Assembly (NCBI GenBank): GCA_037140955.1
Contig: JBAXDL010000002.1
Location: forward strand, 28,176 to 92,175
Direction: 5' to 3'
Length of the DNA: 64,000 nucleotides
DNA from: a bacterium
GTDB taxonomy: Bacteria > Patescibacteriota > Minisyncoccia > Moranbacterales > GWC2-37-73
Position numbers and translations under genes: made by a program. Below the pieces are notes generated by a model, which was not told the origin of the DNA, made no database searches, and was given only the letters and a program-made list of their open reading frames with translations. Shown one piece after another: positions 12,477 to 19,555 of this stretch (within the stretch, counting starts at the first letter, position 1; each line of letters begins with the position of its first letter).

Positions 12477-13469
12477 TTATTTGCAAATGTAGTGAGCCAT
12501 CTCCACCAAACGATTTGAATATCCCCATTCGTTGTCATACCAGCCAACAATCTTCACCTGATTTCCCATGCTCATGGTCAATGGCAAGTCAACAATAGAA
12601 GAATGTGGATTCATTTTATAGTCCATTGAGACAAGTTCTTTGTGTGTGGCATCAAGAATGTTGAGCATGCTTCCATTGGCAGCTTTTTCAAAAGCAGCAT
12701 TAATTTCTTCAACTGTCTTTGGTTTTGTGACTGTGCAAATGAAATCAACAATTGAAACAACTGGCGTTGGCACGCGCAGAGCAATTCCGTCCAACTTTCC
12801 TTTGAGATGTGGAATCACCTTTCCAACTGTCTTGGCAGCACCAGTGGTGGTTGGAATAATAGAAAGTGCAGCAGCACGTGCTCTTCGCATGTCACGATGA
12901 GGTAAATCCAAAAGATTTTGATCGTTGGTATATGAATGAGTGGTTGTCATGAACCCCTGCTCAACATCACAAAGATCATCCAAAACTTTGATCATCGGAG
13001 CCAAACAATTTGTGGTGCAAGAACCATTGGAAACAATTTTTTCGCCGTTATATTCTTTTTCATTGATGCCAAGCAAGAAAACTGGCACATCATCTTTTGG
13101 TGGAGCAGAAAGCACAACTTTCTTTGCACCAGCTGCAATGTGTTTTCCAGCACCTTCTTGATCCAAGAATATTCCAGTGCAATCAAGCACAACATCAACT
13201 TCCAATTTTCCCCATGGCAATTCCAAAGGATCCTTTTGTGAAAAATATTTTATTGGCTTTCCATCAATAATGATCTCGCTATTTTCCTTGTCTACTTTTA
13301 CATCGCGCCCATACACACCATATGATGAATCATATTTCAAAAGATGTGCACTTGTTTCAATGTCAGTCAAATCATTAATAGCCACAACTTCCATATCATT
13401 CTTTTCGAAAACTATTTTCAATGATGGTCTTCCAATACGACCAAAACCATTAATTGCAACTTTCAACAT
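12477..13469 (-). CDS. gap: Glyceraldehyde-3-phosphate dehydrogenase (type I)
   Basis: MLKVAINGFGRIGR... and the active-site region SNGSCTTNCLAPMIKVL. Confidence 0.92.
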   Translation of the reverse strand: MLKVAINGFGRIGRPSLKIVFEKNDMEVVAINDLTDIETSAHLLKYDSSYGVYGRDVKVDKENSEIIIDGKPIKYFSQKDPLELPWGKLEVDVVLDCTGIFLDQEGAGKHIAAGAKKVVLSAPPKDDVPVFLLGINEKEYNGEKIVSNGSCTTNCLAPMIKVLDDLCDVEQGFMTTTHSYTNDQNLLDLPHRDMRRARAAALSIIPTTTGAAKTVGKVIPHLKGKLDGIALRVPTPVVSIVDFICTVTKPKTVEEINAAFEKAANGSMLNILDATHKELVSMDYKMNPHSSIVDLPLTMSMGNQVKIVGWYDNEWGYSNRLVEMAHYICK

Positions 13470-13630
13470 ATTTTTTTATTTTAATTATAAAAAATAATTT
13501 TTAATTTTTAATTTTCACCCTGCGGGTGCGAGTAATTTTATAAATAAATCATAATGTTTTAATTTTTTAAACATTAGAAATTTAAGAATTATTTAAAAAT
13601 TATAAAATTAAAAATTAAAAATTTTGCAAA

Positions 13631-13906
13631 CTATTGTCCTTCAATTTCAGTCAGATGCCAATGCTCACCTTTCACTTTTTTGATATTAAACTTTGTTCTT
13701 TCAAGAATTGTGCCTTTGGCAATGTTTTTGATTCCAAATTTCAAATTATCAATACTGATGTCTTCTGTGTGTTTTTCATGACCATCGTGCGCCAATGCAA
13801 TTTGCCCAATTTCCAAATTCACATATTCAATCTGTGAAAGTTTCTCACTTTTCACAATTTTCATGATATCATCAACAATTTCCTTGGCCAGCATAAAATC
13901 ATGCAT
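13631..13906 (-). CDS. HypA/HybF-like hydrogenase Ni-insertion protein, non-canonical: lacks the CxxC...CxxC zinc finger
   Basis: N-terminal MHD (HypA has the Ni-binding MHE), then FMLAKEIVDDIMKIVKSEKLSQIEYVNLEIGQIA matching the HypA N-domain. The C-terminal ...GEHWHLTEIEG resembles the HypA end. There is no Cys at all; His-rich instead (HDGHEKH, HWH). Confidence 0.45.
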   Translation of the reverse strand: MHDFMLAKEIVDDIMKIVKSEKLSQIEYVNLEIGQIALAHDGHEKHTEDISIDNLKFGIKNIAKGTILERTKFNIKKVKGEHWHLTEIEGQ

Positions 13907-13946
13907 ACGAGAGTGTAAAATGTAAAGTGTAAAAATAAAAGTACAC

Positions 13947-14288
13947 TCAACTCTTTTTTCTTAATGTAATTATACTTGATCCTAAAATATTTGCTATTTC
14001 TTGCGTTTCCTTTAAAATTTTCTCAGCCTTTTCTTTTTCTGCTTTTTTAGTGTCCCGCAATAATCCTAACCAGAATTTTGTTTCATTTGCAGACTTAAGC
14101 GCATAACTAAAAAAATTTGCAAAATCTTTCCTGGAGGCACCAGCTTGCGCTTCAACAATATTTGCACCAATACTAGTTGCGCTTCTCAATAATTGCTTTG
14201 AAATAACTTCAGTACTGAAATCTCGCTTATTTAATCCATCAACAAACATTATGACATCAATTGCATAGAAATATGCTCTGTGCTTCAA
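13947..14288 (-). CDS. Four-helix-bundle protein (23S rRNA intervening-sequence protein / Avd-like family)
   Basis: LLRSATSIGANIVEAQAGASRKDFANFFSYALKSANETKFWLGLL is the family hallmark. Confidence 0.6.
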   Translation of the reverse strand: MKHRAYFYAIDVIMFVDGLNKRDFSTEVISKQLLRSATSIGANIVEAQAGASRKDFANFFSYALKSANETKFWLGLLRDTKKAEKEKAEKILKETQEIANILGSSIITLRKKS

Positions 14289-14349
14289 TTATGTTTTATT
14301 TTTTTCTTGCATTTTAGTTTTTCGTTTTTAGCTTTGCGTTTTGCACTTT

Positions 14350-15612
14350 CTAGTGGACCGCGCAGCTGATACATGGGTCGTAGGCACGAATGAAAGCGCG
14401 CATTTTTCGTTCCATGGCTTTTTCGTCTTTGTCCAAAATTCCAGGAATAAAGGCGGCTATGTCATCTTCCAGATGTGTCAAAACTTGAGCTGTTGGAGTG
14501 ATGATATTTGCATTTTTGATATACCCTTTTGCATCAATATCAACCCAATAATACAAGGTTCCGCGTGGAGCTTCAATGGCAGCAGCAGCCGACCCCTCAC
14601 GCACAGTATATTCCTTTGTGATTGCATTTTCAAGGTTTTCATGTGTAAGCTCTTTGAGCAAGCGAATTGAATCCTCAATGCAATGCACAACCTCCACCAT
14701 TTGATATATAACATTGTGAAATGGATTATAGTCTGGCAAATTAAATTCCAAACTTTTCAGATATTTTTGAGCAGCAGGACTCAATTGTTCGTGATTATTG
14801 TTAATTCTGGCAATAGCGCCAATCATATAACTTGTTTTTCCATCACGTTCAACTCTCTTGATGACCTCCTTTGGACGTTGAAATTCATGAAAACTTTCTT
14901 CAAATTTTTGAGCACTAACATTCAATCCTTTGTTTGAAATAACATCACCCTCGCAAATTGCATATTCACCTTTTGTGCGAAGACAAACATATTCAGTTGG
15001 ACGAGAAAAATTTGGAACTTTAATTGTTTTGAAAAATGCTGCCAATTCCAAGGCTATTGGCAAAATCTCCTCCCCATTGGCAATAAGCTTTTGCAATTGA
15101 TCAACTGTTGGAACTTTTTTGAAACCACCAACTTCATTTGTGAGAGAATGAACGACTCGGCCACCAAGAGTTTTGACAATAGCCATGCCATATTCACGAA
15201 TTTTCACCGCCTTGATTGTTTCTTCGGGATAGGCTTTGATCAAATCCAAGTCATTTTCAATGTCCAAAAAATCTGCCAATGACAAAAAGAAAAGATGCAG
15301 CGCGTGAGAATGAATAAATTGAGCATGCTCCAAAACTTTTCGCATTTTTATTGTTTCTGGTGTGACCTCAACCTTCATTGCATTTTCAATGGCCTTGATT
15401 GCTGTCAGATTGTGCACAATTGGACAAATACCACAAATTCGCTGGGCGATTGTTGGCATGTCTTTGTAATTTCGGCCAACCAAAATCCCTTCAATCAAGC
15501 GAATTCCCTCTTGCACTTCAAATTTGGCTGATTTCACATCGCCCTTGATAACACTAGCCATAAAGCCAGTATGTCCTTCAATTTTTGCAATGTGATTTAT
15601 TTTTATATTCAT
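14350..15612 (-). CDS. [NiFe]-hydrogenase large subunit, group 3 type; ends exactly at the C-terminal His
   Basis: N-terminal RICGICPIVH (L1 motif). The C-terminal DPCISCAVH is immediately followed by the stop, so there is no cleavable extension. 420 aa. Confidence 0.9.
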   Translation of the reverse strand: MNIKINHIAKIEGHTGFMASVIKGDVKSAKFEVQEGIRLIEGILVGRNYKDMPTIAQRICGICPIVHNLTAIKAIENAMKVEVTPETIKMRKVLEHAQFIHSHALHLFFLSLADFLDIENDLDLIKAYPEETIKAVKIREYGMAIVKTLGGRVVHSLTNEVGGFKKVPTVDQLQKLIANGEEILPIALELAAFFKTIKVPNFSRPTEYVCLRTKGEYAICEGDVISNKGLNVSAQKFEESFHEFQRPKEVIKRVERDGKTSYMIGAIARINNNHEQLSPAAQKYLKSLEFNLPDYNPFHNVIYQMVEVVHCIEDSIRLLKELTHENLENAITKEYTVREGSAAAAIEAPRGTLYYWVDIDAKGYIKNANIITPTAQVLTHLEDDIAAFIPGILDKDEKAMERKMRAFIRAYDPCISCAVH

Positions 15613-15758
15613 AGATTTTTTATGTTTAATATTTTTGTAAATAGTATGTGAAAATATGTTTTTATTTTTGCGCTTAAAACAAGATTCCTTGGTTGTTATT
15701 TCGAAAGTTGCAATTGTTTTTCCGCGCCAAAAATAAAAATATATTTGAACAATCTAAC

Positions 15759-16550
15759 CTATCCCTTGTGCTCCCCTTCCCATTTCTCAACATCATCACG
15801 AAGACCAAAAATCTCAGTAGTGTTTTCAAATTCTTCATCTGTCATCATGTTTTTGAGCGCCATCTTCATTGATTTGACATTAGCAGTTGGACGCAGACCG
15901 CGACAACCTTGGCATCCCATGCGAGAACTAGGGCAAACGGCCTCACATCCACCCAGAATCATTGGACCAAAGCAAGGCTTTTTGTCCAAAAGCAAACAAC
16001 GATTTCCTTGCTCTTTGCACTGCACACAAACTGGACTGTCAGGAATTGTTGGCAAAGCAGTGCCATCCTTCACGTTTGCTAGCAATATCGGAAAATATGC
16101 CAAAAATTCTTCTCCTGTGATTGGACAACCAGGGAAAGTAAAATCAACCTTCACAAAATTATTAACTTCTTTGATTTCTTCATTCTCAATTCCTTGCATG
16201 TATTTGTACACATGCTTGATGGTGTTTTTTCCTTCTTGATAATTTTTAATCTCTGGCACACCACCCATGGCAGCGCAGTTTCCAATCACCACCAACAATT
16301 TGCTGCGTTTTCGAAGCTCCAAGAGAGTTTTGATGTTTGCTTTGGTGGCAGGATTTCCCTCCACAAAGGCAATGTCCAAATCAACACCTGGATCTTCCAA
16401 ATCCTCCAGCAAACGAAAATCAACCATCTCAACTTGCGCCACAGCTTCCAAAAATTTGACACCCAAATCCAAAAGCACAAATTGACACCCTTCGCATGAT
16501 GTCAAAGAAACAATAGCAATTTTTGGTTTTTTCACTTCTTGATTTTCCAT
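15759..16550 (-). CDS. [NiFe]-hydrogenase small subunit, group 3 (delta-type)
   Basis: KIAIVSLTSCEGCQ is the group-3 small-subunit N-terminal motif. Also GNCAAMGG and multiple Cys clusters (CVQCKEQGNRC, CEAVCPSSRMGCQGC) for FeS clusters. Confidence 0.85.
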   Translation of the reverse strand: MENQEVKKPKIAIVSLTSCEGCQFVLLDLGVKFLEAVAQVEMVDFRLLEDLEDPGVDLDIAFVEGNPATKANIKTLLELRKRSKLLVVIGNCAAMGGVPEIKNYQEGKNTIKHVYKYMQGIENEEIKEVNNFVKVDFTFPGCPITGEEFLAYFPILLANVKDGTALPTIPDSPVCVQCKEQGNRCLLLDKKPCFGPMILGGCEAVCPSSRMGCQGCRGLRPTANVKSMKMALKNMMTDEEFENTTEIFGLRDDVEKWEGEHKG

Positions 16551-16655
16551 ATTTATTTTATTTTTATTTGTAATATTTGCACACTAATAAAACCTATTTT
16601 ATTGTATCATATTTTTAAACATAAAAAAATGAGGATTCTTAGAATCCTCATTACA

Positions 16656-17318
16656 CTACATCCTTTTTTTCAAAATTGAAAGATATGGAAAGTCAAAATG
16701 ATTAACATTTCCAGCCAAAAACCTTGCAGCCTCCATAAAATCAGAGTCATTTGCCTGTGAATACAAAAGATTCTTAATCAAAACAACACCTGGCGCATCA
16801 TCAACAACCATGGGATAGTGACAAAGCACAGTTTTTCCCTCAATCATTTCTTTTCTGTCTTTCTCCCAAAAAAGAATACCATTGACTTTGACTGCAACGC
16901 TGCCATTTCGATATTCACCGATCATAATATTGTCTTTTGGTGAAACCTTTTTGATCACAATTGGCATCAGCATGTGATTGAAGATGGTGTAATTGTAAAA
17001 CTTTCCACCTCTGGGGATTTGCTCCTTTACAAGATCACCCAAAACAACATCCGTGTGAAACGATGAGCCAAAATAATTTACAATCACCTCCCTGTCAATA
17101 TCTTTTTTGCCAAGATTTTTTGCAACCAAAACAATAGCTTCTTTGCGTTCATCCCATTGTTGCAGCTTTTTGCAAAATTTTGCAAAATCAATATCAATCT
17201 TCTTTGCTAAATTTTCTTCAATAACCTTGCGATTATTTTCACTACTAGGTTTCCCATCAACATAGCAACTGAAAAACATTTTGTAAAAAAGCTCCATCGC
17301 ATCAGCAGTAATTTTCAT
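16656..17318 (-). CDS. Hypothetical 220-aa soluble protein inside the hydrogenase operon, between hypC and the small subunit
   Basis: No recognisable motifs and only four Cys, so it is not an FeS/diaphorase subunit. Same strand with tight spacing to both neighbours. Confidence 0.4.
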   Translation of the reverse strand: MKITADAMELFYKMFFSCYVDGKPSSENNRKVIEENLAKKIDIDFAKFCKKLQQWDERKEAIVLVAKNLGKKDIDREVIVNYFGSSFHTDVVLGDLVKEQIPRGGKFYNYTIFNHMLMPIVIKKVSPKDNIMIGEYRNGSVAVKVNGILFWEKDRKEMIEGKTVLCHYPMVVDDAPGVVLIKNLLYSQANDSDFMEAARFLAGNVNHFDFPYLSILKKRM

Positions 17319-17321
17319 GGC

Positions 17322-17528
17322 CTATTTCCTTTCATTGATTATGTTAAAGATCTCTTGAGCTTGTCTTTTGTCCATTTTTTCAAGCACAACATTTTGCTGC
17401 GACATGACAAAATCACCGATTGCTAATTCTACAATAGTTTTCATTTCCTGTCTATCGCCCTTGAAATCTTCTACCACCACAAGATCACCCCTGACTTCAA
17501 CGACTTTTTTTGGAATTGTTAGGCACAT
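17322..17528 (-). CDS. hypC: Hydrogenase maturation factor HypC/HupF
   Basis: Starts MCLTIP (the HypC hallmark is MC[LG][AGT]IP), 68 aa. Confidence 0.85.
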   Translation of the reverse strand: MCLTIPKKVVEVRGDLVVVEDFKGDRQEMKTIVELAIGDFVMSQQNVVLEKMDKRQAQEIFNIINERK

Positions 17529-17637
17529 ATGAAAAACTATAAACTAAAAGTGCAAAACTAAAAGCAATCTAGTCTTACCTTTTTATTTTTTTATATTTTA
17601 TACCTTTAACTTTTCGCCTTAAGCTTTACACTTTCAG

Positions 17638-18567
17638 TTATTCTTCTCCAACTTCAACTGATTTTTTGTGATGATTATGTTTGGCCTCATCTTCTTTTGT
17701 GACAACGCATTTTCCATCACTGCAAAAATCAATCATTTTTTTCATTACAGTTTTTTTAACTTCCTCTTGTGCATCGCCAAGAATCTTGCGAATATCAAAA
17801 GAAATTTCATTTTGAGATCTGACAGTTTTGATTATGCTATTTATAAATGAAACACGTGTTGCTGTGTCAACATTGAAGCAATTAACCCCACGCTTAACAA
17901 CCTCTTTGACCCTGCCATTTTCCCAATCAGATGCGCCATGCAAAACAATCGGCACATCAACATTAGCCCTTATTTTCTCAAGTCTTGCATAATCAGGCTC
18001 ACTGCGCTCCTTCACAAATCCATGCGCATTTCCAATAGCAACAGCCAAGGTGTCGATTCCAGTTTTTTCCACAAACTCAGCAGCCTCATCAGGATCAGTC
18101 ATATATTTGTCCCAATCAACATCGCCAGCATCCATTTCTCCAATATATGGAACACTACCAAGCTCTCCTTGAACATCAACACCTTTTTCATGACAATAAT
18201 CGACAACATTTTTTGTGATCAAGATATTGTCATTAAGATGCTTTCTGGATCCATCAATCATCACTGAATTGAAACCAATCTCCACGCATCTCTTGCAAAT
18301 GTCAAAACTCTTGCCATGATCAAGATGAATTCCAATTGGAATTTCTGGTGCATACATTTCCGCCATATTTTTCACAATATTGAAAATCTGCCGACCACCA
18401 GCATAGTCCAAAGTTTTTTCAGTAATTTGAACAATAACAGGACTATGCATTTCTCTGGCAGCCTCAATAATAGCCCTGGTTGTTTCCATGTTGGTGGTGT
18501 TAAATGCTCCAACAGCATATCCACCTTCTTTTGCTTTTGTAAGAATTTCTTTTACACTGGTTATCAT
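17638..18567 (-). CDS. fba: Class II fructose-1,6-bisphosphate aldolase
   Basis: GGYAVGAFNTTNMETTRAIIEAA...GIHLDHG...VMIDGS is the class II aldolase signature. Confidence 0.85.
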   Translation of the reverse strand: MITSVKEILTKAKEGGYAVGAFNTTNMETTRAIIEAAREMHSPVIVQITEKTLDYAGGRQIFNIVKNMAEMYAPEIPIGIHLDHGKSFDICKRCVEIGFNSVMIDGSRKHLNDNILITKNVVDYCHEKGVDVQGELGSVPYIGEMDAGDVDWDKYMTDPDEAAEFVEKTGIDTLAVAIGNAHGFVKERSEPDYARLEKIRANVDVPIVLHGASDWENGRVKEVVKRGVNCFNVDTATRVSFINSIIKTVRSQNEISFDIRKILGDAQEEVKKTVMKKMIDFCSDGKCVVTKEDEAKHNHHKKSVEVGEE

Positions 18568-18634
18568 ATTTTTTAGTCCATAAAGTCAAAAGTCACAAGT
18601 CCTTAACGCTTGATGGACTTTTAGCTTTTAGCTT

Positions 18635-19399
18635 TTAGCTATTTATTATTTCTAAAATCTTCACCAATTCGCTAGGAATCAAACTTTCCCTCCCAACAAG
18701 AACACCATCCATGCCAGGATCAATGCAAACCTGTTTTACGGTGATTGCTTTGACACTTCCACCATACAGCACCTTTATTTTTTCAGCTACAGCAATTCCA
18801 TAGGCTTTTTCAAATATCTTTTTTAGCAAAATTTTAATTTGCAAAATTTCATCACTTTTGGGAATAGCATCACTGCCAACAGCCCAAATTGGTTCATAGG
18901 CAATAACAACAGATGATGCCTTCATTGATGAAACATCAACAAATGCTTCCATGATTTGCTCAGCAATAACCTGCGCTTCATTTCCAGCCTCTCTTTCTTC
19001 CTTTGTTTCGCCAACACAATAAATTGGAGTAATATTATTTTTTAGTGCTGCCTTGATTTTCAAATTTGCATCGGCATTTGTTTCTCCAAAAAATTTTCGG
19101 CGCTCACTGTGACCAATAATCACAAATTCTGACCCAAGATCCTTCAGCATTGGAGCAGAAATCTCACCAGTATATGATCCCCTGTCTTCCCAGAACAAAT
19201 TTTGAGCCCCAATAGCAACGTCCTGTGTTTTCAGATTGTTGATAAAATTTTCGACATGCAAAGATGGCACACAAAGAACCAATTTTGAGTTTACAATTCT
19301 TTTTTCGTATAATTCTTTTTTCAGAGACTCAATATATCGCTCACGTTCAACCGTGGTGAGAAGATTCATTTTCAGGTTGCCAATTATTAATTTCTGCAT
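18635..19399 (-). CDS. tpiA: Triosephosphate isomerase
   Basis: LIIGNLKMN...VIIGHSERR...YCVGE are TIM motifs. Confidence 0.9.
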   Translation of the reverse strand: MQKLIIGNLKMNLLTTVERERYIESLKKELYEKRIVNSKLVLCVPSLHVENFINNLKTQDVAIGAQNLFWEDRGSYTGEISAPMLKDLGSEFVIIGHSERRKFFGETNADANLKIKAALKNNITPIYCVGETKEEREAGNEAQVIAEQIMEAFVDVSSMKASSVVIAYEPIWAVGSDAIPKSDEILQIKILLKKIFEKAYGIAVAEKIKVLYGGSVKAITVKQVCIDPGMDGVLVGRESLIPSELVKILEIINS

Positions 19400-19555
19400 A
19401 TTTTTTATTCTATGATATTACCTCGCGGAGAAGTTTCAGCCAAAGGCTGATCAGCCCATGGCTGACATTTTAAGATTTCCAACAATTACTTTTTCCATAA
19501 ATTTACCATATCAACTTACCCTCCTATACGAAACTCAGTCGATTCAAATATTAAG

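Follow-up and report, generated by a model that had tools for sequence, protein, structure and literature searches.

A predicted HypC-like domain in a hypothetical protein encoded with hypC suggests a maturation factor for patescibacterial [NiFe]-hydrogenases

The hypothetical protein ORF220 is encoded directly downstream of hypC in a [NiFe]-hydrogenase gene cluster of a Moranbacterales bacterium. It belongs to an undescribed family (fam220) of cytoplasmic proteins of about 220 amino acids, which combine a novel helical domain with a HypC-derived OB domain. Our best reading, to which we give about an even chance, is that ORF220 is a HypC-derived maturation factor and cooperates with HypC in the iron branch of active-site maturation of [NiFe]-hydrogenases. 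The window, that is, the whole 64,000-nucleotide stretch of DNA that was analysed, contains the following features of the cluster.

17322..17528, minus strand: hypC, 68 amino acids (Pfam HupF_HypC, E = 7e-12), first gene of the bicistronic pair
16656..17318, minus strand: ORF220 (fam220), ATG start, 220 amino acids plus stop, putative HypC-domain accessory protein
16618..16652, minus strand: terminator-like hairpin and T-run, 11-bp stem and 3-nt loop, 4 nt past the ORF220 stop
16601..16609, minus strand: putative extended -10 promoter-like element TGATACAAT, as read from the sequence, ahead of the small-subunit gene
15759..16550, minus strand: [NiFe]-hydrogenase small subunit, group-3b-like, 263 amino acids (Oxidored_q6; best NCBIfam match, sulfhydrogenase delta)
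14350..15612, minus strand: [NiFe]-hydrogenase large subunit, 420 amino acids, RICGICPIVH and DPCISCAVH-stop motifs intact
13947..14288, minus strand: four-helix-bundle or '23S rRNA intervening sequence protein' gene, 113 amino acids (PF05635, TIGR02436)
13631..13906, minus strand: truncated hypA, 91 amino acids, starting MHD, with no Cys and without the zinc domain

The ORF listing returned the 220-residue reading frame with exactly the limits and strand given in the original prediction, and its NCBI entry (MEI7890593.1), from a 180-kb MAG contig, reads 'hypothetical protein'. Direct searches bore out its description as unannotatable, with no match in Pfam, NCBIfam, PHROG, PADLOC or the PDB sequences. 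The protein had also been described as poor in cysteine and not an FeS or flavin diaphorase subunit, in agreement with a total of 3 Cys (and 4 His) and the lack of FeS or flavin motifs. Third codon positions account for 19 of the 31 differences from a 95%-identical homologue and for 127 of the 224 differences from a 60%-identical one; this concentration indicates a real gene under purifying selection.

A word-indexed search recovered five homologues only (53-95% identity), and GTDB genomes searched with the close fam220 alignment yielded no loci. An exhaustive profile search of 1.84e9 representative proteins identified 100 representatives at E<=1e-3, of which 66 reached E<=1e-10. Nearly all members are 203-246 amino acids long and match the profile end to end. 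The resulting 99-sequence alignment, which returned 7 proteins only in a word-index profile search, has a mean column identity of 23%. Cys18 (94/99), His88 (97/99), His115 (99/99) and His167 (98/99) are near-invariant, as are Phe83, Tyr136 and Gln188; this set includes three of the four His of ORF220. Phe194 is also conserved and, like Gln188, lies in the C-terminal helices. In syntenic loci, the mean pairwise distance is 0.76 for fam220, 0.45 for HypC and 0.27 for the hydrogenase subunits. Judged from these alignments, fam220 is a narrow family that evolves fast outside a few fixed residues. Our search of the literature on hydrogenase maturation in CPR, Parcubacteria, Moranbacteria and Patescibacteria found no description of fam220 and nothing on CPR hyp genes.

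The AF2 model of ORF220 built from the 99-sequence alignment had a pLDDT of 97.3 and a pTM of 0.92, compared with a pLDDT of 68 for an AlphaFold model from six sequences only. In the predicted layout, seven helices (to about residue 115) precede a barrel of five strands (118-173), and three to four helices follow at the C-terminus; these elements correspond to three regions of the gene.

16983..17318, minus strand: N-terminal domain (residues 1-112), all-helical, 7 helices, with near-invariant Cys18, Phe83 and His88
16791..16982, minus strand: HypC-like OB barrel (residues 113-176), with His115, Pro119 and Gly161-x-x-V-L-x-His167
16659..16790, minus strand: C-terminal helices (residues 177-220), the first being the counterpart of the HypC C-terminal helix

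A Foldseek search of the PDB with the whole-chain model gave nothing below E 0.04, and no structural relative of the helical N-terminal domain was found. The best structural match of the OB barrel and its helix was HypC (2z1c_A and 2ot2_A); the model reproduces the OB barrel followed by a C-terminal helix that is the hallmark of HypC. Profile comparison with hhalign matched the CPR HypC alignment over its entire length to residues 113-188 (E 3e-4), and an alignment of 62 HypCs to residues 114-192 (probability 78%, E 1.8e-5). The curated threshold of the Pfam HupF_HypC family (PF01455), 28.5 bits, was reached by neither ORF220 nor its relatives: eight of the 99 members gave sub-threshold matches, the best at 24.3 bits (E 3.4e-5) and the next at E 7e-5, covering HypC positions 7-63, and ORF220 itself gave none. 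BLASTP of ORF220 against the neighbouring HypC showed no signal, so the relation is visible solely by profile and structure. The original prediction had recognised no Hyp or Hyc protein in ORF220 and had suggested a remote-homology search. Such comparisons, by Foldseek and profiles, found no whole-chain relative, but the central domain is predicted to be HypC-like; at the level of fold and profile, HypC is its best match and the earlier statement fails.

The hhalign alignment pairs His115 with HypC Cys2, Pro119 with Pro6, and G161-x-x-V-L-x-His167 with GDxVLVH, which contains His51. The Cys2-equivalent position is internal in fam220 and is His in every member, and the His51 equivalent is kept as His167 inside GxxVLxH. 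HypC function classically requires a free N-terminal Cys. The ORF220 domain cannot act as a canonical HypC, because its Cys2 position is internal and occupied by His.

ORF220 lies between hypC and the small-subunit gene on the same strand, as originally described. Spacers of about 100 bp had been reported on both sides; the downstream one measures 105 nt, but only 3 nt separate ORF220 from hypC, and the ORF220 Shine-Dalgarno sequence, AAAGGAAA, sits inside the hypC 3' end. In 17 of 19 loci measured, the apparent gap between hypC and fam220 ranges from -14 to +15 nt; the remaining two show larger overlaps that are likely start-codon artefacts. Read from this arrangement, hypC and ORF220 are translationally coupled.

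The hairpin behind ORF220 resembles an intrinsic terminator and probably ends the hypC-ORF220 transcription unit. A hairpin and T-run occur 3' of the fam220 stop in 16 of 19 related loci, with differing stem sequences. The next element in the intergenic regions of related loci is usually TGnTAnAAT, and TGCTATAAT, TGGTAAAAT or TGTTAAAAT stands at the place equivalent to that of the promoter-like element of the window. Since a conserved predicted terminator and promoter separate them from the small- and large-subunit genes, hypC and fam220 form their own bicistronic unit outside the structural operon, and the view that ORF220 simply lies inside that operon has to be abandoned. An Rfam scan of 13000..19500 matched no RNA family, indicating that the spacers contain no riboswitch.

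Cys2 of HypC is essential and His51 is conserved, and both have been proposed to bind Fe together with Cys41 of HypD (PMC12134894). The HypC of the window starts with MCLTIPKK and has Cys2; at the canonical GDWVLVHxG site it reads GDFVMSQQN, and so lacks His51. We tallied this site in 62 distinct HypCs adjoining fam220 or DUF6390, a second family considered below (window and loci L001-L115). The canonical His51 is absent in all 62, one of which has a His shifted by one position, and the N-terminal MC is retained in all. Variants of the region include GDWVLTQNN, GDFVLSQQN, GDFVEVFGN and GDWVLVNAD. The His51-type His is lost from the partner HypC and kept in the HypC-like domain of the fam220 or DUF6390 protein. 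We found no report in the literature of an association between a His51-less HypC and fam220. A mirror-tree comparison of HypC with fam220 (r 0.28) gave no sign of special co-evolution and is uninformative because the fam220 distances are saturated.

The position of ORF220, originally described as conserved, is the same across about 25 CPR loci. Wherever upstream DNA exists in the loci reached via fam220 itself (L001-L008 and L117), hypC lies immediately upstream, and the small-subunit gene is nearby. A GTDB scan with the HypC motif CLTIPKKV recovered 24 loci from Moranbacteria, Parcubacteria and other Patescibacteria; HMM annotation of these, the other loci and the window gave the order tpiA-fba-(NuoEFG-like insert)-hypC-fam220-small-(insert)-large-hypA-gap. 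Small- and large-subunit genes follow the pair in all GTDB loci whose downstream sequence is long enough. The L005 contig stops behind an inserted gene, so the lack of a large-subunit gene there carries no weight. In L117, fam220 accompanies a 'hyd2'-type hydrogenase with a truncated small subunit of 157 amino acids (compare Jaffe et al. 2020, PMC7304191).

The window cluster sits within a string of glycolytic genes, tpiA-fba-[hyd cluster]-gap (12477..19399), a synteny found in about 25 CPR loci, which hints at H2 metabolism coupled to GAPDH redox balance. Several genes interrupt the string. In L005 (6317-9440), the interval between fba and hypC contains NuoE-, NuoF- and NuoG/[FeFe]-hydrogenase-like genes, and 3-kb gaps occur at the same place in L017, L019, L021-L023 and L030; these genes may possibly provide a HoxEFU-type diaphorase for two-subunit hydrogenases, and the window lineage is without them. 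A gene for a secreted, matrixin-like coiled-coil protein (Peptidase_M10, HExxH) splits the small- and large-subunit genes in several loci (L017:12041-12994, L019:11690-12628, L021:12284-13207, L025:8395-9372, L032:7676-8626), and in two close relatives the same interval holds an ORF of 98-107 amino acids with a weak MazG-like match (L003:2951-3274, L008:2980-3276). The four-helix-bundle gene between the large-subunit gene and hypA of the window looks like a recent insertion, because it is absent there in L001, L012 and L013.

The small-subunit gene is the presumed downstream beneficiary of the hypC-ORF220 pair, and the maturation proteins presumably act on the large subunit. As the large subunit lacks a C-terminal extension, a maturation endopeptidase should be unnecessary, and no gene for one lies near the hydrogenase cluster of the window. 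ORF220 itself was ruled out as such an endopeptidase by its different fold and by the lack of this extension.

To our knowledge, every [NiFe]-hydrogenase characterised so far depends on HypA-F for its maturation, and the HypC-HypD scaffold is regarded as universal. A motif scan of the window and about 115 loci (approximately 1 Mb, consisting of +/-10 kb flanks only) detected no ORF with a HypD, HypE or HypF signature, and Pfam comparison of ten large ORFs of the window found no HypD, HypE or HypF. ORF220 lacks the HypD motifs CGxHxH, GPGCPVC and GFETT, as well as the C-terminal CX14CX6CX16C [4Fe-4S] site, which rules it out as a HypD fragment.

From the HypC-like domain, the coupling to hypC and the [NiFe]-hydrogenase linkage in nearly every evaluable locus, we infer that ORF220 pairs physically with HypC, binds metal and serves in maturation. 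The original prediction had proposed a hydrogenase partner or a maturation factor; these observations favour its second half, but a structural partner does not fit the persistence of the pair in at least two lineages without a hydrogenase gene within 10 kb. Such intact pairs (L009:10001-10890, L010:10001-10890 and L011:1734-2623) also count against our best reading.

How the two proteins might cooperate can be proposed only tentatively, and we are more doubtful than confident that they share a metal site. In such a mechanism, HypC, having lost the canonical His51, would supply the free thiolate of its N-terminal Cys2. ORF220 would supply Cys18, His88, His115 and His167 as a putative ligand cluster, with His115 in the place of HypC Cys2, His167 in that of His51, and Cys18 and His88 coming from the helical domain. 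HypC and ORF220 would jointly retain the iron unit, or the apo-large subunit, until the transfer to the large subunit, whose gene lies downstream. ORF220 would take the place that is held in classical systems by HypD or by accessory HypC partners such as HupK/HoxV. A further step, which we consider improbable, is that the His51-less HypC with ORF220, or elsewhere with DUF6390, constitutes an alternative, HypD-independent minimal scaffold that assembles or delivers the iron centre in reduced genomes lacking HypD, HypE and HypF. If true, it would represent a second or salvage route to the NiFe active site.

DUF6390 (PF19927) occupies the place of fam220 in five of the 24 GTDB loci (L025 and L032-L035), where an EamA permease and a DUF6390 protein of 236-251 amino acids lie between hypC and the small-subunit gene. 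The four DUF6390 proteins scanned matched PF19927 with E-values from 1e-40 to 4e-47. Across the 24 loci the two families are mutually exclusive in this slot, which hypC precedes and the hydrogenase small-subunit gene follows. The C-terminus of DUF6390 is HypC-like (hhalign probability 94%, E 1.4e-7), contains the motifs CRIxWGKV and GDWVSxHW, and in direct comparison weakly matched both PF01455 and the HypC sequence of T. kodakarensis. A metagenome scan recovered 80 DUF6390 loci, most of them ordered hypC-(EamA)-DUF6390-small-large-hypA. In distant loci (31-35% identity), DUF6390 has an overlapping hypC upstream and stands beside a divergently transcribed group-4/Nuo-like membrane complex. We found no mention of DUF6390 or PF19927 in the literature.

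The EamA permease is always situated between hypC and DUF6390 in CPR loci (L025:5554-6462, L032:5249-6151, L033:10201-11097, L034:10206-11111, L035:1200-2087) and never accompanies fam220; its role may possibly be metal or metabolite transport. A 151-residue ORF in the fam220/DUF6390 slot of L019 (10215-10670) has a DUF6390-like N-terminus and a C-terminal GDEVYFHQG (DUF6390 HMM, E 0.015), and looks like a shortened variant.

It is quite possible, if short of an even chance, that ORF220 is a diverged DUF6390 member with the same ancestor and function, and nothing more; this explanation is compatible with a maturation role and does not oppose it. Besides the shared slot, mutual exclusion and similar length, both families have a helical N-domain followed by a HypC-like C-domain, and their hhalign alignment is collinear over 71-188 columns with an E-value of 2e-3. 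The probability of this alignment, however, is only 13-14%. None of the 99 fam220 members scanned scored significantly against DUF6390, the single match (P0091) reaching 11.6 bits (E 0.19) against a Pfam threshold of 25 bits. Among the DUF6390 motifs, only GDWVSxHW has a counterpart in fam220 (GxxVLxH); GxCGP, HxFH and the Cys of CRIxWGKV are replaced by SC18, H88 and H115. By these scores fam220 is not a Pfam DUF6390 member, and the two families appear to be either very distant homologues or analogues.

The near-invariant Cys and three His of ORF220 form a typical Ni/Zn ligand set, and the protein might instead be a nickel (or zinc) metallochaperone or storage protein that replaces HypB/SlyD and feeds the truncated HypA through its Cys/His3 site, with the OB domain merely docking the large subunit. 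In its favour, no hypB-like gene was seen near the cluster, and a GSGKT motif scan gave only 4 matches, none annotated as HypB. The Pfam match of the window HypA covers profile positions 1-71 of 112; the N-terminal MHD, an MHE-like nickel motif, is kept and the zinc-finger domain is gone (HypA homologues in related loci have 79-126 amino acids). We nevertheless regard a nickel or zinc function as unlikely: ORF220 is coupled to hypC, hypA stands at the far end behind the structural genes, and in L009 and L010 hypA does not accompany the hypC-fam220 pair. ORF220 also contains neither a His-rich stretch nor a GTPase domain.

The pairs in L009 and L010/L011, which retain all key fam220 residues, raise the question of whether HypC and fam220 serve a process other than hydrogenase maturation, such as the handling of iron or another cofactor for different clients, so that their adjacency to hydrogenase genes would be historical. 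L009 keeps the tpiA-fba flank and has lost the small, large, hypA and gap genes; the autonomy of the hypC-fam220 operon also suits such a role. The hydrogenase could, however, lie elsewhere in the L009 and L010 genomes, and the regular succession of small- and large-subunit genes behind the pair in GTDB loci points to hydrogenase. In distant lineages the analogous DUF6390 is linked to hydrogenase genes of both group 3 and group 4, and HypC has no known role outside hydrogenases (established knowledge and PMC12134894). On balance, a different client is very unlikely.

The remaining alternative, that ORF220 stands in for the missing beta/gamma diaphorase subunits of a two-subunit hydrogenase as a structural or electron-transfer subunit, could draw on the lack of beta/gamma or HoxEFU-like genes in the window cluster and on the remark of Jaffe et al. 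2020 (PMC7304191) that certain CPR hydrogenases have to 'support function with unknown genes', but is most improbable given that ORF220 shows none of the marks of such subunits (FeS Cys motifs, or FAD and NAD(P) domains as in beta/gamma and HoxEFU; no Pfam or NCBIfam domain and one conserved Cys), is predicted to have the fold of a maturation chaperone, is separated from the structural genes by the conserved terminator and promoter, is kept even in loci with NuoE/F/G-like genes, and belongs to a family evolving about three times faster than the hydrogenase subunits.

At minimum, our analysis identifies a 'hypothetical protein' as a HypC-domain protein whose four candidate ligand residues can be tested. 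Both fam220 and its apparent analogue DUF6390 are always encoded with a His51-less HypC near hydrogenase genes, in CPR bacteria and in some other lineages, and their neighbourhood contains no hypD, hypE or hypF. If they form a maturation module, it would be a concrete candidate for how bacteria with ultra-small genomes build hydrogenases, and DUF6390 thereby gains its first functional hypothesis. No prior description of a HypC-like domain in fam220 or DUF6390 was found in the literature.

Among known proteins, the closest are the Fe(CN)2CO chaperones HypC/HybG/HupF (PF01455, TIGR00074). ORF220 resembles them in profile over the whole HypC length, in the retained Pro6 and GxxVLxH motifs, and in its hydrogenase maturation context. 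It differs in having 220 amino acids compared with 70-90, with a 112-residue helical domain in front; because this domain precedes it, the equivalent of the essential Cys2 cannot be N-terminal, and an invariant His is found there instead. Furthermore, ORF220 falls below the Pfam and NCBIfam thresholds, and it coexists with a bona fide HypC, which it directly follows. We therefore regard fam220 as a new architectural variant of HypC and not as a new category.

DUF6390 shares with fam220 a similar size, the slot in sister CPR lineages, the helical N-terminal part with a HypC-like C-domain, and the His51-less partner HypC. It has a Cys at the HypC Cys2 position together with GxCGP and HxFH, whereas fam220 has Cys18, His88 and His115. 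In CPR loci DUF6390 is accompanied by an EamA gene, which fam220 is not, and outside CPR it is also found beside group-4/Nuo-like complexes.

HypD, the [4Fe-4S] scaffold partner of HypC, is comparable in gene arrangement, as ORF220 is directly downstream of hypC and translationally coupled to it, as in classical hypCD. The conserved Cys and His of ORF220 could complement HypC Cys2 as Cys41 of HypD does. ORF220 is nevertheless much smaller (220 compared with about 370 amino acids), is predicted to have a helical plus OB fold and not a Rossmann-like one, and, with one conserved Cys, can hold no redox cofactor.

A further parallel is offered by HupK/HoxV and HupF/HoxL of O2-tolerant hydrogenases, which are extra, lineage-specific intermediate scaffold or holder proteins that work with a HypC-type chaperone in Fe-site assembly (PMC12134894). 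ORF220 is likewise an extra lineage-specific protein beside a HypC-type chaperone. However, HupK/HoxV are homologues of the large subunit, and HupF/HoxL are simple paralogues of HypC that carry a C-terminal tail. ORF220 fits neither description and comes from anaerobic CPR bacteria.
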